Shown here: piece after piece, positions 4,812-56,612 of the stretch | Numbering within the stretch: the stretch's first letter is position 1 | Layout of the letters: each line of letters begins with the position of its first letter | Assembly (NCBI GenBank): GCA_028716725.1 | Contig: JAQUPG010000002.1 | Coordinates: forward strand, 25,824 to 89,823 | Direction of reading: 5' to 3' | DNA length: 64,000 nt | From: Patescibacteria group bacterium | Lineage (GTDB): Bacteria; Patescibacteriota; Patescibacteriia; Patescibacteriales; JAQTRU01 | Notes under the pieces: generated by a model | Database searches by the model: none | What the model was told of the DNA's origin: nothing | Seen by the model: only the letters and a program-made list of their open reading frames with translations | Program-made: the position numbers and the translations under genes

Positions 4812-4875
4812 CACCTCACCCCGTCGCTATCGCTCCTCCCCTCTCCTAATTAGGAGAGGGGTTGGGGGTGAGGTA
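4812..4875. repeat. GC-rich palindromic repeat, subfamily CCCCTCTCCT-AATT-AGGAGAGGGG...GGGGTGAGGT
   Basis: Near-perfect 60-nt palindrome centred on cctaattagg, intergenic between the DUF362 gene and cca. Related copies at 9737..9784 and 39511..39546. Confidence 0.6.
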
Positions 4876-8899: not shown

Positions 8900-10642
8900 C
8901 TAACTTCTCTTTCTATAACTAGTATGCAGCACTTTATGTTCCAATTTACCCTGGCCTTCTAACCATTTTAAAACTTCTAAAACCCCCTTATTCTCATGGG
9001 CTTTTCTTATTTTTTTGCTTTTATCCAGCTTATACAAAGCAGCCGTTCTTTTTTTTCTGATTTCATCCGTGGTCGGAATCGGCTGGCCTCCCCCGCCAAT
9101 ACAACCGCCCGGACAGGCCATTACTTCAATATAGTCGTATTTATTTAGATTGGCTATGACCGGTTCTATATTGCCGATGCCGTTAACGACCGCCACTCTT
9201 AATTTTTTACCGGCCACGGGCACAATCGTTTCTTTCACCCCGTCCAGTCCGCGCACTTCTTTAAAATCAAGCCGGGTCGGGCAAATTTTTCTTTTATTTT
9301 TTCCGCAAGCTAAAAATTGGGCGGTGCGCAAGGCCGATTCCATCACTCCACCGCTGCCGCCGTAAATAACTCCGGCACCGCTATATTCCCCTAAAATATC
9401 ATCGGCTTTGGTCGGTTTTAATTTGGGGAAATTAATACGGTTCTTTTTTAAAAGCCAGGCCAGCTCCCTGGTGGTCAAAACGTAATCTACCGGGAAAAAT
9501 CCCTTTACTTTTAGTTCCGGACGCGTGGCCTCAAATTTTTTGGCGGTGCAAGGCATTACGGAAACGACTACAATATCTTTAGGGTTAATATTCATCTTAT
9601 CCGCCCAATAAGTTTTTACTATCCCGCCGAGATGAACATGGGGGCTACGGGCCGTAGTTAAATTGGGAATTAATTCCGGATGGTAAAACTCAACATATTT
9701 TACCCAAGCCGGGCAACAGGAGGTTATCATCGGCAACCTCTCCTCCCTTCCCCCTCCCCTAATTAGGGGAGGGTGGGGTGAGGTCTTTATTCGTTTCAAC
9801 AATTCTTCTGCTTCCACCATAGTCGTAACATCAGCCCCGAAACTAACATCAAAAATATAATTAAAACCAAGTTCTTTCAGGCCGGACACGATTTGACCGG
9901 TTAAAATTTCGCCATAAGCTAAATTAAATTCCTCGCCGATGCTTACCCGAATAGAAGGAGCAAATTGGGCGACAACAACTTTATTTTTGTTTTTCAGGGC
10001 TCTCTCCACCATTTCCCACTGGCTTTGTTCCTGGGCCGCCCCGACCGGGCAATGGACCGCGCATTGCCCGCAATAAATACAATCGATTTTTTTATCTTTA
10101 GTCGGCACTATCTCCTGGTCAATTCCCTTACCCTTCAACTCCAAATAATTAATATTTTGCAGAAGCGAACAGGCATCAAGGCAATTGCGGCAATCTATGC
10201 ATTGCGTGCCATCAATTTCCACGGCGTTGGCAAATTTATAAATTTTTCTTTTCCCCTTTCGGTCAGGAAAACGCTTTATTTCAATTTTATACCTTTCCGC
10301 CAAATCCAAAAGGCCACAATGCACATTCCAAATGCAAGTCGGGCATTTTTCAATATGTTCGGCAAAAATCAACTCAATATTTAAATTGCGCGATTTTTTA
10401 ACTCTTTCCGTATCAGTCCATATTTCCATGCCTTCCGCCACTGCCTTTTTGCAGGCTAGGGAAAGTTTTTTTCCTCCTTTAATCTCCACGACACAAATCC
10501 GGCAATTGCCTTTAATCGGAAAATCTGGATGGTGACAAAGTCCGGGAATGAATATCCCGTTTTCCCGCGCTACCTCCATGATAGTTCTACCGGGCAAACA
10601 ATTTATTTTTTTTCCGTTAATTTTTATTTCAATCTTTTTCAT
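8900..10642 (-). CDS. hydA: [FeFe]-hydrogenase catalytic subunit HydA (N-terminal 2Fe-2S and 4Fe-4S domains plus H-cluster domain)
   Basis: H-cluster motifs L1 TSCCPAW, L2 MPCTAKKFE and L3 EVMACPGGCIGGGGQP. N-terminal 2Fe-2S ferredoxin fold plus CxxCxxC clusters. Confidence 0.85.
   Translation of the reverse strand: MKKIEIKINGKKINCLPGRTIMEVARENGIFIPGLCHHPDFPIKGNCRICVVEIKGGKKLSLACKKAVAEGMEIWTDTERVKKSRNLNIELIFAEHIEKCPTCIWNVHCGLLDLAERYKIEIKRFPDRKGKRKIYKFANAVEIDGTQCIDCRNCLDACSLLQNINYLELKGKGIDQEIVPTKDKKIDCIYCGQCAVHCPVGAAQEQSQWEMVERALKNKNKVVVAQFAPSIRVSIGEEFNLAYGEILTGQIVSGLKELGFNYIFDVSFGADVTTMVEAEELLKRIKTSPHPPLIRGGGREERLPMITSCCPAWVKYVEFYHPELIPNLTTARSPHVHLGGIVKTYWADKMNINPKDIVVVSVMPCTAKKFEATRPELKVKGFFPVDYVLTTRELAWLLKKNRINFPKLKPTKADDILGEYSGAGVIYGGSGGVMESALRTAQFLACGKNKRKICPTRLDFKEVRGLDGVKETIVPVAGKKLRVAVVNGIGNIEPVIANLNKYDYIEVMACPGGCIGGGGQPIPTTDEIRKKRTAALYKLDKSKKIRKAHENKGVLEVLKWLEGQGKLEHKVLHTSYRKRS
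9737..9784. repeat. GC-rich palindromic repeat inserted in frame within hydA
   Basis: cctctcctcccttccccctcccctaattaggggagggtggggtgaggt. It encodes PHPPLIRGGGREER just upstream of the L1 motif and is a near-copy of the intergenic palindromes at 4812 and 39511. Confidence 0.6.
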
Positions 10643-17505: not shown

Positions 17506-18696
17506 CTAATACCTAGCACTCAACCCATAACACCCAATAACCCCTCCCCCTAAAACCTCATCTTTTCTGTAAAAAACCACGCTTTGCCCGGGGGTAATTG
17601 CCCTTTGCGGCTTTTTAAATTTTACAGAATATCTTCCTCTGTTGTTCTCCGCTTTTAGTTTTTCGATTTTACATTTTACTTGTTTGTGCCTGTACCTAAT
17701 TACCGCCTCGCAAGCCAGGGGCAGTTTGGGTTCTCGCCCGGCTATCCAATTAACATTATCCGCGACTAATTTATCATTACATAAAGCCGGGTCATCGCCA
17801 TCCTTCACCACATACAAAGTATTGGTTTTATAATCGCATTTGGCGACATAGAACGGGCCGATGCCGCCGATTTCCACCCCCCTCCTTTGGCCGATAGTGT
17901 AAAGCGGCAGGCCCTGATGTTCGCCCACTTTTTTACCATCTAAAGTTTTTATCGGACCTGATTTTAATTTAAGGTATCTTTTTAAAAAATCGTTATGGCT
18001 CTTGCCGGGGATAAAACAAATTTCCTGGCTTTCTTTTTTGGAGGCGACCGGCAGTTTAAATTTCCCGGCTATTTTTCTTACTTCTTCTTTTTTATAATCG
18101 CCCAGCGGGAAGAGCAGATGCCCCAATTGCCCTTGCGTTAAAGTCCAAAGAAAATATGACTGATCCTTATTTTTGTCTTTCGCCCGGAAAAGTCTGTACT
18201 GCCTGCCAGTTTTTTTCAAACGCACATAATGGCCGCTGGCGACATAATCAAACCCCAATTGCTTCGCCCGCTCAATCAGCAGGCCCAGTTTAACCAATTT
18301 ATTACAGCGGATACAGGGATTAGGAGTCCCGCCCTTCTTATATTCATTAAGAAAATAGTCAACCACTTCCTTTTTAAAAATATGGCTGAAATTCAAAGTG
18401 TAAAACGGCATATTGATATTGGAGCAAACCCGCCTCGCATCCATTAAGGCTTCAATTGAACAGCATTTATTTTCCGCTTCGCCCGCCTTTTCATCTTTCC
18501 AAAAATGCAAAAAAATTCCCAAAAGGTCACACCCCTGGTCTTTCAATAATTTTGCCGCCACCGAAGAATCCACCCCACCAGACATCGCTACAATTATGCG
18601 CTTTTTTTTATCGCCGCCCGCTTGCCCCGCAGAATCCCGAAGGGATTTGTGTGGGGACATCGCCACGATAATTTTTTTGTTTTCTTCTCCCGACAT
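17506..18696 (-). CDS. mnmA: tRNA-specific 2-thiouridylase MnmA
   Basis: PP-loop IIVAMSGGVDSSVAA, the CIRCN zinc/catalytic region and a C-terminal barrel. Confidence 0.85.
   Translation of the reverse strand: MSGEENKKIIVAMSPHKSLRDSAGQAGGDKKKRIIVAMSGGVDSSVAAKLLKDQGCDLLGIFLHFWKDEKAGEAENKCCSIEALMDARRVCSNINMPFYTLNFSHIFKKEVVDYFLNEYKKGGTPNPCIRCNKLVKLGLLIERAKQLGFDYVASGHYVRLKKTGRQYRLFRAKDKNKDQSYFLWTLTQGQLGHLLFPLGDYKKEEVRKIAGKFKLPVASKKESQEICFIPGKSHNDFLKRYLKLKSGPIKTLDGKKVGEHQGLPLYTIGQRRGVEIGGIGPFYVAKCDYKTNTLYVVKDGDDPALCNDKLVADNVNWIAGREPKLPLACEAVIRYRHKQVKCKIEKLKAENNRGRYSVKFKKPQRAITPGQSVVFYRKDEVLGGGVIGCYGLSARY
18621..18676. repeat. GC-rich hairpin element inserted in frame at the mnmA 5' end, flanked by an imperfect direct repeat
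   Basis: cccgcttgccccgcagaatcccgaagggatttgtgtgggg lies between attatcgtggcgatgtcc and ataattgtagcgatgtct (14/18 identical). The peptide IIVAMS is therefore encoded twice around a PHKSLRDSAGQAGGD linker. Confidence 0.5.
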
Positions 18697-26968: not shown

Positions 26969-27038
26969 CCACTTCGCCTCGCTATTGCTCGGAACTTCCT
27001 GCCTGCCGGCAGGCAGGCAAGGGGCGAGACGAAGCGAT
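26969..27038. repeat. nested GC-rich palindrome containing the 24-mer acttcctgcctgccggcaggcagg
   Basis: cttcgcctcgc ... cctgcctgccggcaggcagg ... gcgagacgaag. The 24-mer recurs exactly at 35819..35842. Confidence 0.6.
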
Positions 27039-27970: not shown

Positions 27971-28032
27971 CACAGATAACAAAACCCCTCTCGCTTACCA
28001 ACGAGAGGGGAATTTTTTTATTTTAAATTTTT

Positions 28033-29199
28033 TTATTTTCTTATTTCATCCATTAACTCCATATAAAATTCCAAATTATTCAGACTCGCCAGTTTTGCTC
28101 CCAATGGCTCCCTTAATTTAAACAAGTGATGCAAATAAGCTTTGGAGTAATTGCGCAGTTCCGGCAGTTTGCTTTCCGAATTAATCGGACTAAAATCTCT
28201 AGCAAATTTAGCATTATTAATATTGACCGTCCGATAAAAATCTTTTGACATTTGCCTGCCCGCCGTAGCCTTGGCGAAGGCGGGGAATTTAGAATTTCTC
28301 TTCCAAAGGAAGAGTTTTCCATGCCTTCCTTCTCTTGTCGGAATTACGCAATCAAAAATATCCCAACCCATTTCTGCTGCCCGGACAATATCTTCCGGCA
28401 GGCCTATGCCCAGGCCAAAACGGATAGAATCTTTCGGGATTAAATCAGCCGTGAATTGCAAGACTTTTCCTAAAAACCTCCCGTCCTTATCAATTGGCCG
28501 GGCGCCGAAACCATAACCGTCAAACCCGATTTTTATCAATCCTTCCGCGCATTTTTTTCTTAAATCCAGTTCGGCTCCGCCCTGGATAACGCTAAAGAGT
28601 AACGGCCTCTCCCCTACTTTCATCTTCCTCCCCTTAACTTGCCTGTCATATTCCGCCCGGCACCTGGCGGCCCAGCTAATTGTGCGCTCTACTGATTTTT
28701 CTAAATCTTTTCGGCTAAATTCATTCGGCGGGCAATCATCCAAACAGACCATCATATCAACTCCTAAATCAAACTGGATTTGGATGGATTTTTCCGGAGT
28801 TAGCTCATGAGAAGAGCCGTCCAAAGGAGATTTAAAAATTACCCCCTTATCGCTTATCTTACCCATAGCCGGCTTCTTATGGACTAAGGAAAAAACCTGA
28901 AAGCCGCCACTGTCAGACAAAATCGGCCCGGACCAATTCATGAACTTATGGATGCCACCTTGCCTCGCCGAAGTACCACGAAGGCGGGTGGTTTTTTTTA
29001 TAATTTTCATCCCCGGCTGCAAATAAAGATGCAACGTGTTAACTACTAGGGCCTTAACCCCCATATTTTTTAGTTCTTCATTATCGGTAAGCTTAACAAA
29101 CCCCCTGGTCGCATCCGGCATAAAAAAAGGAGTCCTAATGCTCCCATGCGGTGTTTTTATTATTTTAGACTTTCCTCTTTTTATCCCCATTTCGTTCAT
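28033..29199 (-). CDS. tgt: queuine tRNA-ribosyltransferase
   Basis: TPHG..TP.FMP.AT N-terminus, the VMVCLDDC region and overall TGT length. Confidence 0.85.
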   Translation of the reverse strand: MNEMGIKRGKSKIIKTPHGSIRTPFFMPDATRGFVKLTDNEELKNMGVKALVVNTLHLYLQPGMKIIKKTTRLRGTSARQGGIHKFMNWSGPILSDSGGFQVFSLVHKKPAMGKISDKGVIFKSPLDGSSHELTPEKSIQIQFDLGVDMMVCLDDCPPNEFSRKDLEKSVERTISWAARCRAEYDRQVKGRKMKVGERPLLFSVIQGGAELDLRKKCAEGLIKIGFDGYGFGARPIDKDGRFLGKVLQFTADLIPKDSIRFGLGIGLPEDIVRAAEMGWDIFDCVIPTREGRHGKLFLWKRNSKFPAFAKATAGRQMSKDFYRTVNINNAKFARDFSPINSESKLPELRNYSKAYLHHLFKLREPLGAKLASLNNLEFYMELMDEIRK

Positions 29200-35721: not shown

Positions 35722-35872
35722 AAGGGGTTCGGGGGCCAAACCCCGCAATACTGGGGGGCAGGCTGAGCTAAGAATTGCTTGCCCGCCGAAGCTTTAGCGG
35801 AGGCGGGAGGCCCCCGAAACTTCCTGCCTGCCGGCAGGCAGGTTGCTTACTTTTGGTTACAAAAGTAAGTCC
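35722..35872. repeat. composite GC-rich structured element (gttcgggggcc ... ggcccccgaaac outer stem, the 24-mer palindrome, and a cttacttttg/caaaagtaag hairpin)
   Basis: Intergenic between parB and the GT4 gene. Shares the 24-mer exactly with 26994..27017. Confidence 0.5.
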
Positions 35873-36765: not shown

Positions 36766-36777
36766 AGAAATAATTTA

Positions 36778-36900
36778 AAATTTAAAAATCAAAATGTAAA
36801 ATTAAGGTATCGCGCTGCGCTCGCCTCGCTGAAGCTTCGGCGAAGCGGGCGCGATGAATTTTTAATTTTAAATTGTCATTTTGATTTTTGATTTTTACAT
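36778..36900. repeat. GC-rich hairpin (36808..36854, centred on gaagcttc) flanked by AT-rich inverted arms, in the parA-parB spacer
   Basis: atcgcgc...gcgcgat outer stem. The arms share aaaaatcaaaatg. It shares GCCTCGCTGAAG / CGAAGCGGG motifs with other GC elements. Confidence 0.45.
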
Positions 36901-37747: not shown

Positions 37748-37857
37748 GGCCCTGGTGGCCCGCCTCCGTCCCGAGCGTCGGGACTTCGGCGAGGCAAGCG
37801 GAACTGGCATGCCTCGCTGAAACCGGGCTTCAGCTCGGCGAGGCCGGTAAACGCGCA
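37748..37857 (+). other. GC-rich structured element whose first 11 nt (gccctggtggc) and an internal gcggaactgg match the 5' end of the downstream tRNA-Leu. Candidate tRNA remnant, leader or small RNA.
   Basis: ~110 nt at ~68% GC in a ~40% GC genome. Internal hairpin cgaggca...tgcctcg and direct repeat tcggcgagg. Lies between the consensus promoter and tRNA-Leu. Confidence 0.4.
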
Positions 37858-37880: not shown

Positions 37881-37964
37881 AGCCCTGGTGGCGGAACTGG
37901 TAGACGCGCACGACTCAAAATCGTGTGGACGCAAGTCCATGAGAGTTCGATTCTCTCCCTGGGC
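37881..37964 (+). tRNA. tRNA-Leu (anticodon CAA), type II with long variable arm, no encoded CCA
   Basis: Anticodon stem-loop cacga-ctCAAaa-tcgtg, variable arm tggacgcaagtcca, T-arm gagag-ttcgatt-ctctc, acceptor gccctgg/cctgggc with one T-T mismatch. Confidence 0.8.
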
Positions 37965-38068
37965 ACGGATAATTTAAGATTTCAGATTCTAGAATTCAGA
38001 ATAAAAACAAACACAAAATCACAAGCCAAAACCAAGGGGGGGGTATTGGCTTTTTTGTTCATTGAGAA

Positions 38069-39510: not shown

Positions 39511-39546
39511 CCCCTCTCCTGGCTAGGAGAGGGGCAGGGGTGAGGT
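39511..39546. repeat. GC-rich palindromic repeat (cccctctcct-ggct-aggagagggg-caggggtgaggt)
   Basis: Third member of the subfamily seen at 4812 and 9737. Confidence 0.55.
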
Positions 39547-46096: not shown

Positions 46097-47833
46097 TTAT
46101 TTTCTGCTTTTTATCTTTTCTTTTACTTCAGCAATAAATTTTTCTTTATCCACTTCTCTGGTCTTCTGCTCCCCGCGATCGCGCACGGCTAAATTGGCAG
46201 ATCCCATCTCTTTATCTCCGACCACCAAAACATAAGGGGTCTTTTCGCCCACCGCTTTCCTGATTTTATTGCCCACGGTTTCATTGCTTTTATCCACCTC
46301 CACTCTGACATCTTCTTTTCTAAAATCTCCAGCTAACTTTTGGCAAAATTCAATATGGCCTTCTCCGACGGAAATGATTTTAACCTGCACGGGAGCCAGC
46401 CAAACCGGAAAAGCGCCGGCGTAATGCTCAATCAAAATTCCGATAAAGCGTTCCAAGGACCCCATCAAAGCCCGATGGACTATTACTGGCTGTTTTTCTT
46501 TCCCCTCTTTATCTATATATTTTAAACTGAATTTTTCCGGCATGAAAAAATCTAACTGAATTGTGCCTGTCTGCCAGGTCCGGCCCAAGCTGTCTTTAAC
46601 ATGGATATCAATTTTTGGACCGTAAAAAGCCCCGTCTTTTTCTTTTAATCCGTATCCTATTTTATTTTTCTTTAAAGCGTTAGCTAGAGCTTTTTCCGCC
46701 TTGGCCCAGATTTTAGGATCACCCATGGCGTCGTCAGGCCGAGTGCTTAAAAATACTTCGGTTTTTAAGCCAAACGGCTCATATATTTCCTGCATAATCT
46801 TTAAAACCTCAGTCACTTCGTCTTCAATCATATCCTCGCTGATAAAAATATGGGCATCATCTTGGGTAATGTGCTGGACCCGCAAAAGGCCGTGCAGTTC
46901 TCCGGATTTTTCATTTCTATACACAATTCCCAATTCAGACCAGCGTAAAGGAAAATCCCGGTAGCTTCTTAAATCCTCTTTATAAACTAAAATCGCGCCC
47001 GGGCAATCCATCGGCCGTAAGGCCATTTTTCTGCCCTCATTGGAAGTAAAAAACATACTGTCTTTATAATGTTCATAATGGCCGGATTGCTTCCAAAGGC
47101 CAACGTCCAAAATATGGGGCAACTTTAATTCCGCATAACCGTGATTTCTCTGGATTTTCCGCCAACGCTCGGCCAAAGTGTTAAAAATAATATTGCCTTT
47201 GTCGTGCCAGAAAGGCATGCCCGGCGCTTCCTCGTGCATTGAGAATAAATCCAGTTCTTTGCCGATTTTCCTATGGTCTCTTTTTTCCGCTTCCGCCATC
47301 ATTTTTAAATAATCTTCCAGTTCTTTTTTAGATGCAAAAGCCGCGGCGTAAATCCGGGTAAGCATCGGCCTTTTTTCATCTCCGCGCCAATAAGCCCCGG
47401 CCAGTTTCGTTAATTTAAAACCGGAATTTTTCAGCTTGCCGCTTGAAACTAAATGCGGTCCGCGGCACAGATCAATAAAGTCTTCCAACTTATAATAACT
47501 GACTTTCTTTTCACCCTCGCTTTTAAAATCTTTTACCAGCTCCTGTTTATAAATTTGCCCTGATTTTTTCTCCTTGGCAATCGCTTCATCTATTTTCATT
47601 TCTGACCTTTCAAACTTTAAGTCTTTTTTTATAATCTCTTCCATTTTTTTCTCAATTTTTGCTAAATCTTCCTCGCTTACTTTCTCCTGGCCAAAGTCAA
47701 AATCATAATAAAATCCGTTCTCTATGGCCGGGCCGATAGCGAATTTTACTTTTGGCCAAAGCTGCCTAACAGCCGCGGCCATAACATGCGACAGCGAATG
47801 CCGCATAATCTCTAATTCTTTTTCTTTATCCAT
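46097..47833 (-). CDS. thrS: threonyl-tRNA synthetase
   Basis: Editing-domain HxxxH (RHSLSHVMAAAV), class II motifs and a C-terminal anticodon-binding domain. Confidence 0.9.
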   Translation of the reverse strand: MDKEKELEIMRHSLSHVMAAAVRQLWPKVKFAIGPAIENGFYYDFDFGQEKVSEEDLAKIEKKMEEIIKKDLKFERSEMKIDEAIAKEKKSGQIYKQELVKDFKSEGEKKVSYYKLEDFIDLCRGPHLVSSGKLKNSGFKLTKLAGAYWRGDEKRPMLTRIYAAAFASKKELEDYLKMMAEAEKRDHRKIGKELDLFSMHEEAPGMPFWHDKGNIIFNTLAERWRKIQRNHGYAELKLPHILDVGLWKQSGHYEHYKDSMFFTSNEGRKMALRPMDCPGAILVYKEDLRSYRDFPLRWSELGIVYRNEKSGELHGLLRVQHITQDDAHIFISEDMIEDEVTEVLKIMQEIYEPFGLKTEVFLSTRPDDAMGDPKIWAKAEKALANALKKNKIGYGLKEKDGAFYGPKIDIHVKDSLGRTWQTGTIQLDFFMPEKFSLKYIDKEGKEKQPVIVHRALMGSLERFIGILIEHYAGAFPVWLAPVQVKIISVGEGHIEFCQKLAGDFRKEDVRVEVDKSNETVGNKIRKAVGEKTPYVLVVGDKEMGSANLAVRDRGEQKTREVDKEKFIAEVKEKIKSRK

Positions 47834-48439: not shown

Positions 48440-48560
48440 TTAAAATAATTTAACGCACCGGGACGGAGTTTTTAATTCCGCGGTTCCACCCAGCTTGTCT
48501 CGCCTTTGGGCAAGACCTCTCTTCCCCTATCCCTCTGGTTTAGTCCCGGATACCCGGAAT
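48440..48560. other. GC-rich non-coding block with hairpins (tcccggatacccgga), function unknown
   Basis: ~55% GC, no ORF. Lies between the GNAT gene and the acidic ORF. Confidence 0.25.
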
Positions 48561-48627
48561 CCCGAATTTTCAGGACCATGGCTGGTAACCATAGCAATCA
48601 CCTTATGGATAGTTATAATAAATTTTA

Positions 48628-49037: not shown

Positions 49038-50483
49038 CTATTTCTTCATTTCTATTTTAATCCGATCCGCTAAATTCGGCACTTTATCTATAAAAGACGG
49101 GAAGAAATTAATTTCATAGCCGGCGATTTCCTTAAAGCCGCTTAAATAATCTTCTAATTGGGCGCGGGTTAAATTAACGATTTTCTGCCGGTCAATGATA
49201 TCGGCCCCGCCTTTTAAGCTCATTTTCCCCTCAAAAGTAGCATTAACCGTTGCCCGGCCCGTTTCTAGGTCAAAATTATTTAAAGTGTAATTTATCTCTT
49301 CGGGCTTAAATTCTATCAATTCCTTATTATCCGGCACTACTTCTTCTAATTTTCCTTTAGCCATTTTTCCGGCTTCGTCGCCGGAGAAAGCGACAATCGT
49401 TACCATCGCCTTCATGCTGACATCGAATTTATCCTTCTCTTCGCCCACCTTACCGTTGACCTCGGTGCTGATGGTATTTTCATCGACGCTGTAAATAACT
49501 TCATTATAACCCTTATAATTTTCCCCTAGTTCGTTTTTCGCTTTTTCCAAAAGGCTTCTTTTTAAATCCTTAATCGCCTGGTCAATGTCCGATTGCTGAA
49601 TATATTTTTTTGCCTGCTGCCCATAAACGAATTTCTCTTTGCTTTCCGCATAAATCTTATCCTGCAACCCGGCCCATAATCCCGGAATGGTGAATTTCGT
49701 CGGGCCGATAGCCATATCCGCGCTCACCTCATCGGCGTATATTTCCACTTCCTGCGACCCGCCTGCCGGCACATTGATTGTGTTTTTTATCCGGAAAAGT
49801 TTATTGTCCGGAGACAGCAATCTCGTTGTCGCCACCAAGGGCTGATTCTTATTGTAATTATTTATAACCGTAACCTTTCCGGTCACTTCTTCGCCGATCT
49901 TTTCCGACCCGCTGGCGGAATAGGTATTTTTTTCCTCAATGCTGGTTTGTTCCACGATGCCGGTTAACGATTTCCCCGGTACGGCCGGCTCGCTCCCGTT
50001 TCCATAGATATCTATAGCCAAACTGTCGCTTAATCTTTCCTGCGCCGGTATTAAAACAATATTTAACTTTACAAAAGAAAAATAAAAAATAACACCTAGC
50101 AAAACAACGGTTAAAACAATAAAACTCACGGCTATTTTTCGGTATAAATTTATTTTTGGGGAATTCATATTTTTTTTCGCCTCTTTTCCGGCCGGTCCGC
50201 CCAAACTCGGCGAAGCTGAGACAGCCTCGCTCGCCTTACTTTGCCTGCCTCGCTCTGCGGGCAAGGCTGGCGGCCGAAGCGGGCTTGGTTCTAATTTTTT
50301 AAAATTTTTATTCTGCTTTTTAAAGTTATAGCCAGTATTAACTGCAGAGGAAGAAGACGGCCGGAGAACTTTACCTATTTTGGGGAGAGGCTTAGCCTCT
50401 TTTTCAATAATTACAGGAACGACCTCTTTTTTGGCTTTATCTGGGAGAGAAGATTTCCCTGTTTTTTTCTTCGCTCTTGGCAT
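49038..50483 (-). CDS. hypothetical membrane-anchored protein (Lys/Pro-rich N-terminus, one TM, large extracytoplasmic domain)
   Basis: 481 aa. The N-terminal region includes a GC-rich in-frame segment. Confidence 0.5.
   Translation of the reverse strand: MPRAKKKTGKSSLPDKAKKEVVPVIIEKEAKPLPKIGKVLRPSSSSAVNTGYNFKKQNKNFKKLEPSPLRPPALPAERGRQSKASEAVSASPSLGGPAGKEAKKNMNSPKINLYRKIAVSFIVLTVVLLGVIFYFSFVKLNIVLIPAQERLSDSLAIDIYGNGSEPAVPGKSLTGIVEQTSIEEKNTYSASGSEKIGEEVTGKVTVINNYNKNQPLVATTRLLSPDNKLFRIKNTINVPAGGSQEVEIYADEVSADMAIGPTKFTIPGLWAGLQDKIYAESKEKFVYGQQAKKYIQQSDIDQAIKDLKRSLLEKAKNELGENYKGYNEVIYSVDENTISTEVNGKVGEEKDKFDVSMKAMVTIVAFSGDEAGKMAKGKLEEVVPDNKELIEFKPEEINYTLNNFDLETGRATVNATFEGKMSLKGGADIIDRQKIVNLTRAQLEDYLSGFKEIAGYEINFFPSFIDKVPNLADRIKIEMKK
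50180..50295. repeat. GC-rich repeat-family element in frame within the 481-aa gene
   Basis: ~115 nt at ~68% GC encoding LRPPALPAERGRQSKASEAVSASPSLGGPAGKEA. Shares CTCGGCGAAG, GCCTCGCT and GCCGAAGCGGGC motifs with the intergenic elements at 36808 and 37748. Confidence 0.5.
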
Positions 50484-55205: not shown

Positions 55206-56612
55206 TCAATTCTTCATCTCTTCCAGCTTCACCTTAACTTCCTTGTTTTCACCCTTATGCAAAATCTTTAAAGTAATTTCATCTCCGACTTTAAATTTGC
55301 CGATCGCTGAAGACAGAGGATTATTGGCGTCAATTTTTTTGCCGTTTACTTCCAGAATAATATCATTTTCCGCTAACCCGGCTTTATCCGCTGGTGAACC
55401 AGGAATAACGGCCAAATCAGTCCGGTTTTCTCCCCGGACAATCAGGGCGCCGTAATCAACGCTTAATTTATTAGCATCAGCTATAGATTTATCAACCAAA
55501 ACATATCTTACCCCCAGCCAAGGCCTGACAATCCGGCCGTTTTTCTTAACGCTTTCAATCGTGTCTTTTAAATCATTAATCGGAATAGCAAAGCCGATAT
55601 TCTGGGCGTTCTGCGCGATGGCGGTATTTATGCCAATTACCTGGCCGGCCAGATTAAGCAACGGACCGCCGGAATTGCCGGAATTAATAGAGGCATCAGT
55701 CTGGATAACGCCGCTTAATTGTTCGCTTCCTAACCCGATCCCGCCGGCGGTAATTGAGCGGGACAAGCCGGAAATTACCCCGGTCGAAACCGTATTCCTG
55801 AATTCGCCCAAAGCATTGCCGATAGCGATGACAGTCTGCCCGACTTTTAAATTGCTTGAATCTCCTAATTCCACCGTCGGAAATTTTTCTCCCTCGCCCG
55901 CCGAAGCTTTGGCGGAGGCGGGCTCAATCTTTAAGACGGCTAAATCGGTGGCCGGATCCCGGGCCAAAACTTTCGCTTCATGTTTTGTTTCATCATTCAT
56001 TAAAACCGTATATTCCGCTTCTTCATCAAGAACCACGTGCTTGTTGGTGACTATATAACCGTCGGAAGAAACAATAAAGCCGGTGCCGCCCCCTATTTCC
56101 TGTTTCGTTGTGCCGTTCTGTTTTTGCTTCGGCGCAGGCGGATTGGCATTGGGGCCGAACAATTCATCAAAATTATCGCCGAAAAATTGGCGCAAAAAAT
56201 CGTCCCCAAAAGAATTATTATAATACTGTTCAACCGTGGGCAAATCCTTGCTGATAATAATGCTGACTACGGCCGGTGAAACTTTTTCCGCAGCCGTAAT
56301 AACGCCCGACTCCTCCTCTACTTTTACGATTTTCTCCCCCTGGTTTGCGCTTCCCTCTAACCCAGAACCAGCCGGCTGGCCGGTAGCAACCCCCTTTAAC
56401 CAGCTAAATAAATTAAATTGGGCGGCAGACGATACCGTGCCGGCCCAAAAACCCATTGCTCCCCCAAAAACAGAACTAACTATCATGGAAGAAACAATAA
56501 TGGTTATAAAAGTCTTCTTAAAATTGTTCTCCATATTAATTTTAGGATAAGGATGGGGAAAGATATCCTTTTTATATAATATAATACGAATTAAACCGCT
56601 TTCTGCTTTCAC
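55206..56612 (-). CDS. htrA: HtrA/DegP-family serine protease with PDZ domain
   Basis: Trypsin-like triad context and GNSGGPLLN. C-terminal PDZ. N-terminal TM anchor. Confidence 0.85.
   Translation of the reverse strand: MKAESGLIRIILYKKDIFPHPYPKINMENNFKKTFITIIVSSMIVSSVFGGAMGFWAGTVSSAAQFNLFSWLKGVATGQPAGSGLEGSANQGEKIVKVEEESGVITAAEKVSPAVVSIIISKDLPTVEQYYNNSFGDDFLRQFFGDNFDELFGPNANPPAPKQKQNGTTKQEIGGGTGFIVSSDGYIVTNKHVVLDEEAEYTVLMNDETKHEAKVLARDPATDLAVLKIEPASAKASAGEGEKFPTVELGDSSNLKVGQTVIAIGNALGEFRNTVSTGVISGLSRSITAGGIGLGSEQLSGVIQTDASINSGNSGGPLLNLAGQVIGINTAIAQNAQNIGFAIPINDLKDTIESVKKNGRIVRPWLGVRYVLVDKSIADANKLSVDYGALIVRGENRTDLAVIPGSPADKAGLAENDIILEVNGKKIDANNPLSSAIGKFKVGDEITLKILHKGENKEVKVKLEEMKN

Follow-up and report, generated by a model that had tools for sequence, protein, structure and literature searches.

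Rickettsia palindromic elements (RPEs), which Ogata and colleagues reportedly described in 2000, are said to be selfish palindromes that lie in frame in the genes of bacteria with reduced genomes, where they add a peptide at permissive sites and leave the protein intact. RPE-1 measures 100–150 nucleotides (nt). In yeast mitochondria, GC clusters form GC-rich palindromic islands in an AT-rich genome, are sometimes in frame (var1), and show presence/absence polymorphism. Intragenic repetitive extragenic palindromic (REP) elements, tagged by GTAG or CGTC, include some that are in frame in genes of known proteins in Opitutus terrae and R. conorii, and the same study (Di Nocera et al. 2013, PMC3733652) covers the RPEs of Rickettsia, single intragenic REPs in several species, and REPs of Bradyrhizobium whose inner loops are large. 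Here we describe a 64-kb stretch of a Patescibacteria genome (the window, by which we mean the whole stretch analyzed), and in it a GC-rich block, E3, at 50180–50295 within the gene of a membrane protein of 481 amino acids (aa). A sequence-only reading of the window had placed E3 in a family of mobile GC-rich palindromes tolerated inside coding sequence, together with E1, an element in the parA-parB spacer, and E2, an element upstream of tRNA-Leu. A short hairpin family does lie in frame in genes here, but E3 does not belong to it as a member: E3 is neither intact as an element nor mobile at present. With a probability of roughly 0.55, we consider it a hypervariable disordered linker built by in-frame insertions and deletions (indels), partly from eroded sequence of the hairpin family.

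The unit of the family is a 30-nt hairpin, CCCGCCTNCGCYRARGCTWCGGCGGRCARG, which is canonical in three of its window copies and divergent in the other five. Across 123 copies, the consensus reads CCCGCCTNCGCYRARGCTWCGGCGGRC and then ARG(C) with a sharp 5' edge, and hairpin positions 12 and 15 co-vary (C-G in 74 copies, T-A in 41, mismatched in 8). The loop is C(UWCG)G, which we take to be a UNCG tetraloop. Like REPs, these hairpins are GC-rich stem-loops in multiple copies, mostly downstream of or between genes, with some in frame. REPs occur as many near-identical palindromes of 20–40 nt, as does the canonical hairpin, whereas E3 is single-copy. Unlike REPs, the hairpin has no terminal GTAG or CGTC tag: in the 123-copy consensus no base is conserved upstream of CCCGCC, the 3' tail is ARGC, and GTAG occurs only inside the loop of variants with W=A. 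It also differs in being asymmetric (sharp 5' edge, conserved ARGC tail, UNCG loop) and in remaining near-identical across contigs of 32–71% GC; E3 itself is no copy of it. REPs are mobilized by RAYT, a Y1 transposase whose gene usually has REPs at its sides. No RAYT or other transposase domain was detected in any of the 51 window open reading frames (ORFs) scanned (50 selected from the list of at least 110 aa, plus the 481-aa ORF). With neither a tag nor a RAYT seen, we therefore do not file the hairpin as a strict REP. The hairpin does behave like one, and in-frame palindromic repeats are already known.

RPEs resemble both the hairpins and E3 in lying in frame and keeping the host ORF open, and differ from the family in unit length and in lineage. 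E3 has an RPE-like length, but neither dyad symmetry, nor a tandem repeat, nor a second copy. Yeast GC clusters are comparable as scattered GC-rich palindromes that are occasionally in frame and vary in presence; they belong to an organelle genome and to other sequence families, and the window is only moderately AT-rich (41.6% GC). PARCELs are coding DNA with dyad symmetry in which both orientations give similar peptides, as the hairpins do with sense PAxAKAxAG and antisense LPAEAxAxAG. However, PARCELs have units of 25 residues, arrayed in tandem to form whole repeat proteins, while the hairpins are single ten-codon insertions in housekeeping enzymes. E3 is like disordered low-complexity linkers in its biased composition, low predicted local distance difference test (pLDDT) scores, variable length, and near-neutral substitution, but ordinary linkers of this kind do not share words with a family of genomic repeats to a significant degree. 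No paper in the literature library searched links REP-like repeats with Patescibacteria, and nothing relevant on the hairpin peptides turned up there.

A variable tail in a conserved membrane protein

The features of the E3-bearing gene are as follows.

49038–50483, minus strand: the 481-aa ORF, with a disordered Lys-rich N-terminal tail (residues 1–109), a transmembrane (TM) helix (112–136), and a beta-rich C-terminal domain.
50180–50295, minus strand: E3, the in-frame GC-rich block, codons 63–102 of the 481-aa ORF, encoding KLEPSPLRPPALPAERGRQSKASEAVSASPSLGGPAGKEA.
50076–50150, minus strand: codons of the predicted TM helix (residues 112–136), pLDDT 77–84, invariant alignment columns, immediately downstream of the E3-bearing tail.
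50247–50267, minus strand: small hairpin 1 in E3, GCCUUGC-CCGCAGA-GCGAGGC, within a 36-nt middle part.
50210–50230, minus strand: small hairpin 2 in E3, GCGAGGCUG-UCU-CAGCUUCGC, from folding.
50188–50215, minus strand: the part of E3 that aligns best, with gaps, to the canonical hairpin read in sense, CTTCGCCGA-GTTTGGGCGGACCGGCCG, 23 of 28 positions, score 30.

The position and coding context of E3 are as the sequence-only reading gave them; its GC content, put there at about 68%, measures 64.7%, against 41.6% for the whole window. The peak over 60 nt is 72%, and the 99.9th percentile of the window is 70%. The block was also correctly recognized as an in-frame low-complexity linker: residues 63–102 are rich in Pro, Ala, Ser, Gly, and Arg (an example peptide is ASEAVSASPSLGGPAGK), the reading frame of E3 contains no stop, and the host ORF stays open. 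By codon position, GC is 0.675/0.675/0.575 in E3 and 0.45/0.32/0.455 in the remaining gene. Compared with 38-codon windows of long ORFs, GC at the first and second positions falls in the top 0.02%, and GC at the third position is unremarkable, being equalled by 16% of background windows.

An identical protein in NCBI, from gene PHZ04_03275, is annotated as a "hypothetical protein" of a Patescibacteria metagenome-assembled genome, and more than 1000 homologs, many labelled Falkowbacteria, mark it as a conserved hypothetical protein of Patescibacteria. A Pfam scan of the 481-aa protein found no domain. The AlphaFold (AF2) model, built with 19 homologs, has pLDDT below 50, with values of 30–40, at residues 1–109, followed by the helix at 112–136 and a beta-rich domain modelled with confidence. 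A Foldseek search of the PDB gave only weak matches to phage baseplate proteins (Mu gp47-like, TM-score about 0.2), which serve as no more than a hint and support no claim. Because the tail is Lys-rich and precedes a single TM helix, we take it to be cytoplasmic. The tail, E3 included, is probably translated, since distant homologs keep the MPxxKK start (and many of them lack a Met corresponding to Met105), the frame runs without a stop through over 100 codons of AT-rich DNA in 7/7 close relatives, and all length differences among close relatives are multiples of 3. E3 combines the predicted disorder, the biased composition, and, in the 19-homolog alignment, the hypervariable length and sequence of a disordered linker.

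The variation among orthologs is considerable. Between the flanking motifs KKLE and KEAKKNMN, the window has 102 nt, the closest relative L001 (83% protein identity) has 84, L014 has 78, L015 and L016 have 51, and L017 and L003 have about 24. The stretch is thus larger in the window than in all six relatives whose version is GC-rich. L002 carries a far longer and AT-richer insert. The left end of E3 (SPLRP) and its right 18 codons are collinear with L001, and the middle 36 nt stands where L001 has an unrelated 18 nt; therefore, E3 was assembled piecemeal rather than inserted as one unit. Read by eye, L015 seems to owe an extra 27 nt to local duplication, in tandem, of the SP[FL]RP unit. Counted by codon position, the window and L001 differ by 19/20/98 in the C-terminal domain, but by 17/16/17 in the tail and by 9/9/13 in E3. 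This absence of codon-position bias implies that the peptide is under very weak constraint.

Taken together, E3 would be a translated, disordered, and fast-evolving tail segment of a conserved membrane-anchored protein of Patescibacteria. The tail would accept practically every sequence that leaves the TM helix and the ordered C-terminal domain in frame, and because its sequence is nearly free, in-frame indels would build up there. One or two old hairpin copies, later broken by indels and substitutions, most likely supplied part of E3. E3 is without evident function beyond that of a spacer.

Words shared with the hairpin family

The evidence that ties E3 to the hairpins lies in short words. 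Three motifs had been proposed as common to E1, E2, and E3: the 8-mer GCCTCGCT indeed has exact copies in E1 and E2 and two in E3 (5 matches, where 1.7 are expected), while CTCGGCGAAG and GCCGAAGCGGGC are exact in E3 only and have one mismatch in E1/E2. E3 and the family have 18 8-mers in common, compared with 3.4 in dinucleotide shuffles (p<0.0005) and with a mean of 2.1 and a maximum of 9 for 16 GC-rich control islands. To remove the selection bias of the first choice of motifs, the test was rerun with copies found independently of E3, and E3 then had 24 7-mers in common with them, versus 8.8±3.9 in shuffles (p=0.0005), a number reached by 0/41 control islands. In a scan of the whole window with a vocabulary taken from metagenomes only, E3 ranked fourth, right after the three canonical copies. 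E3 thus shares words with the family beyond composition, and we infer that these words descend from hairpin copies. The best gapped alignment of E3 scores above all 41 control islands, and the segment 50188–50215 is possibly an eroded canonical copy. A second partial match, of 12 bits to a covariance model of the family, falls on the middle hairpin of E3. That the family does enter genes in frame also speaks for descent.

A number of results weigh against descent from the hairpins. The same gapped alignment, made with 115 independent metagenome copies, has a shuffle p of 0.087. Local alignment of E3 to E1, E2, and four further hairpins gave p=0.19–0.59 against dinucleotide shuffles, whereas among the other elements the same test gave p≤0.02, mostly ≤0.004. 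An nhmmer profile of seven copies recovers all seven (E=7e-7 to 1.7e-4) but finds no match in E3 at E≤50. A covariance model of 26 copies, run with filters off, gives E3 12.2 bits (E=3.9, a weak match at 50243–50270 on the minus strand, over small hairpin 1), compared with 43–47 bits for canonical copies, 36 for E1, 31 and 22 for the two halves of E2, and 22–47 for all accepted copies. The length excess of E3 over its orthologs is 18, 24, 51, and 78 nt, with no multiples of 30; the canonical hairpin peptide, in six frames, occurs in 0/120 homolog tails; and the orthologous segments of relatives are mostly without word enrichment. The GC excess of E3 lies mainly at codon positions 1 and 2, as its content of Pro, Ala, Gly, and Arg alone would lead one to expect, and the shared words could reflect a common hairpin-prone GC vocabulary instead of descent. 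E3 holds only fragments of the family (GCCCGCTTCG, GCTTCGGC, CTTGCCCGC, and AGCGAGGC), at the wrong spacing and out of the family's order, in which the outer CCCGCC/GGCGGG stem comes first, then GCY-RA-RGC as the inner mini-palindrome, then the C(UWCG)G loop, and it does not have the family's insertion length of 30 nt, or ten codons. The proposal that E3 is a third member of the palindrome family is thus not supported: the other elements are significantly similar among themselves, and E3, which is not palindromic, has one copy, and shows no 30-nt steps, resembles them at the level of words only.

The main rival reading, possible if on the unlikely side, is that E3 is a purely compositional linker whose words converged with those of the hairpins through local replication slippage, with no repeat ancestry. 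Its pattern of extreme GC at codon positions 1 and 2 with ordinary GC at position 3 agrees with this, as do the absence of contiguous similarity to the family in local alignment, nhmmer, and covariance-model searches, the homolog tails lacking the canonical peptide, and the local 27-nt tandem duplication by which L015 and L016 appear, by eye, to differ from L017. Slippage and composition do not, however, account well for word sharing that neither shuffles nor the 41 real GC-rich islands of the window ever match, for the rank of E3 just below the canonical copies, or for a GC content nearly flat over codon positions, unlike that of normal coding sequence. We hold it very improbable that E3 is instead an intact member of a separate, RPE-like family of mobile GC-rich elements of about 100 nt, recently inserted in frame. 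Such an element would have a similar length, would lie in frame in a permissive region, and would make the segment larger than in the six GC-rich relatives, as is seen; but self-BLAST of E3, E1, and E2 found no second copy of E3 in the 64 kb (best 40 nt at 72%, E=0.019), folding of both strands found no significant overall dyad symmetry, Tandem Repeats Finder on 50100–50400 found no tandem structure, and the left and right thirds that are collinear with the L001 ortholog speak against insertion in a single piece.

Retention of E3 for a role of its RNA, either as messenger hairpins that slow ribosomes before the TM segment emerges or as protection of the transcript, also receives very little credence from us. 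Folding predicts a local hairpin of 7 bp and one of 9 bp, E3 lies 10–50 codons upstream of the TM helix, and family hairpins are mostly co-oriented with transcription. The folding energy is nonetheless no better than that of shuffles (z-scores of −1.67 as RNA and −0.84 as DNA, neither strand being better folded), neither L001 nor other orthologs keep these hairpins, and Rfam, at gathering and E-value thresholds, matches neither E3 nor the canonical hairpin. The remaining alternative, that the tail is untranslated and E3 lies in a 5' leader before a true start at Met105, could draw on a Shine–Dalgarno-like AAGAGG about 11 nt upstream of the ATG at codon 105 and on tail substitutions without codon-position bias; it is rejected, and rated highly unlikely, given the conserved start, the open frame, and the multiple-of-3 indels. 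We thus return to a variable linker built in part from hairpin remnants: broken hairpin copies would explain common words without an alignable copy, and a word-only resemblance fits erosion rather than an intact mobile element.

The hairpin family in the window

The copies of the family in the window are listed here.

18617–18671, minus strand: in-frame hairpin with a UUCG loop near the N-terminus of mnmA, a divergent copy, PHKSLRDSAGQAGGD; partial match to the hidden Markov model (HMM).
28254–28284, minus strand: canonical hairpin, in frame in TGT (28033–29199, minus strand), PAFAKATAGR; 44.7 bits.
28958–28988, minus strand: divergent hairpin, in frame in TGT but read in another frame, TTRLRGTSARQG; 29.8 bits.
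35777–35807, minus strand: canonical hairpin, intergenic, between a glycosyltransferase gene and parB; 46.8 bits.
36819–36850, minus strand: E1, divergent member in the parA-parB spacer; HMM E=6.8e-7, 36.4 bits.
37768–37799, plus strand, and 37807–37843, minus strand: E2, two divergent members; covariance model 31 and 21.7 bits.
55892–55922, minus strand: canonical hairpin, in frame in an HtrA-like protease (55206–56612, minus strand), PASAKASAGE; 42.8 bits.

Other parts of the earlier proposal are borne out by these copies. E1 and both halves of E2 are members of one family (HMM E=7e-7 to 1.5e-4; covariance model 22–36 bits), and the cases named in mnmA and hydA are both real in-frame hairpins, the one in hydA belonging to a second family. 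The expectation that copies in coding sequence keep the frame and avoid stops holds for the canonical in-gene hairpins, which are 30 nt, equal to ten codons, with the frame open. In HtrA, the hairpin adds exactly 10 residues when DegP-like structures are the reference. Against the TGT of Z. mobilis, the copy at 28958–28988 is a 10-aa insertion; one TGT copy is thus an exact 10-residue insertion, and the other lies inside a 22-residue extra segment. The ThrRS genes of two relatives (L001, 5923–5959; L006, 3510–3545) carry an extra 30 nt encoding PAFAKA[ST]AGK, which the window ThrRS is without; its empty site lies near 47521, at AAAAGCGAG^GGTGAAAAG. This presence and absence is direct evidence of gain or loss of a family hairpin, and gain and loss among orthologs suggest that the family is, or was, mobile.

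Several observations concern the surroundings of these hairpins. The mnmA hairpin (gene at 17506–18696) is flanked by a diverged direct coding duplication of about 24 nt (KKIIVAMS / KKRIIVAMSGG), and its insertion seems to have duplicated its own target just before the PP-loop motif. E1 is the GC-rich center of a much longer AT-rich inverted repeat at 36770–36900 (AAAATCAAAATGTAAAATTAA ... TTAATTTTAAATTGTCATTTTGATTTT). The E2 element as a whole (37748–37857, plus strand) begins with a copy of the 5' part of tRNA-Leu (37882–37966), GCCCTGGTGGC ... GGAACTGG ... TAAACGCGCAC; this copy is a broken partial duplicate beside the intact gene and is interrupted by the two family hairpins. A reduced T-box leader at 48456–48601 on the minus strand, upstream of a GNAT gene and ThrRS, matches RF00230 with 34 bits, below the gathering score, and most of its stem I is missing. 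In relatives, a family-type hairpin occupies the position of T-box stem III (L006, 3059–3095; L017, 1696–1723; L002, 3970–4014).

Two further kinds of short repeat occur in the window. The second hairpin family, CCCC(T/C)CTCC-nnnn-GGAGAGGGG, has copies at 9750–9775 (minus strand), 4838–4861, 27985–28010, and 39511–39534. Three are intergenic, and the one at 9750–9775 is in frame in the [FeFe]-hydrogenase gene hydA (8900–10642; SPHPPLIRGGG), where the Pfam match is about 53 residues longer than the profile. A third short palindrome, CCTGCCTGCCGGCAGGCAGG, is intergenic twice (26998–27021 and 35823–35842), with one copy 16 nt from a canonical hairpin.

The family beyond this genome

The hairpin is not confined to this genome. 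Its 27-nt core is almost unchanged in at least 120 metagenome stretches (L018–L137; e.g., L085, 6003–6029; L029, 5274–5300; and L082) on contigs of 32–71% GC, and the proteins of L085 are identical to Bradyrhizobium sp. proteins. On contigs below 47% GC, and among the matches listed, 34/44 copies lie inside ORFs of at least 120 aa; 27 of these 34 use two frames, sense PA[FSY]A[KE]A[ST]AG and antisense LPAEA[SL]A[QK]AG. In 7.3 Gb of plasmid sequence, BLAST found no true copy of the canonical hairpin, only partial matches at chance level. Several high-GC contigs (L032, L038, L044, L065, and L080) have the hairpin directly followed by 5–10-nt tandem repeats (CCGTT, CCAATGA, and GTCCAAG units), and several metagenome copies abut tRNA ends (L062, L089, and L114).

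A broader and doubtful proposal, which we judge unlikely, is that the 30-nt hairpin is a mobile mini-element that crosses phyla (Patescibacteria, Bradyrhizobium, and other high-GC soil bacteria), inserts exactly ten codons into essential genes with no need of a nearby transposase, favors two Ala-rich frames, and later decays, so that hypervariable disordered segments such as E3 would be its graveyards. If true, the hairpin would keep supplying reduced genomes with new protein sequence of the disordered kind.

E3 alone is of minor importance, as a spacer in a protein tail. More broadly, REP-like hairpins of 30 nt are present in this Patescibacteria genome in the reading frames of housekeeping enzymes, namely an HtrA-like protease, TGT, and MnmA, with ThrRS as a further case in relatives. 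The family would account for short Ala-rich PAxAKAxAG insertions in annotated proteins, and would draw attention to one origin of artefacts when metagenome-assembled genomes are aligned and annotated. It may also serve as a tractable case of selfish hairpins turning into protein sequence.

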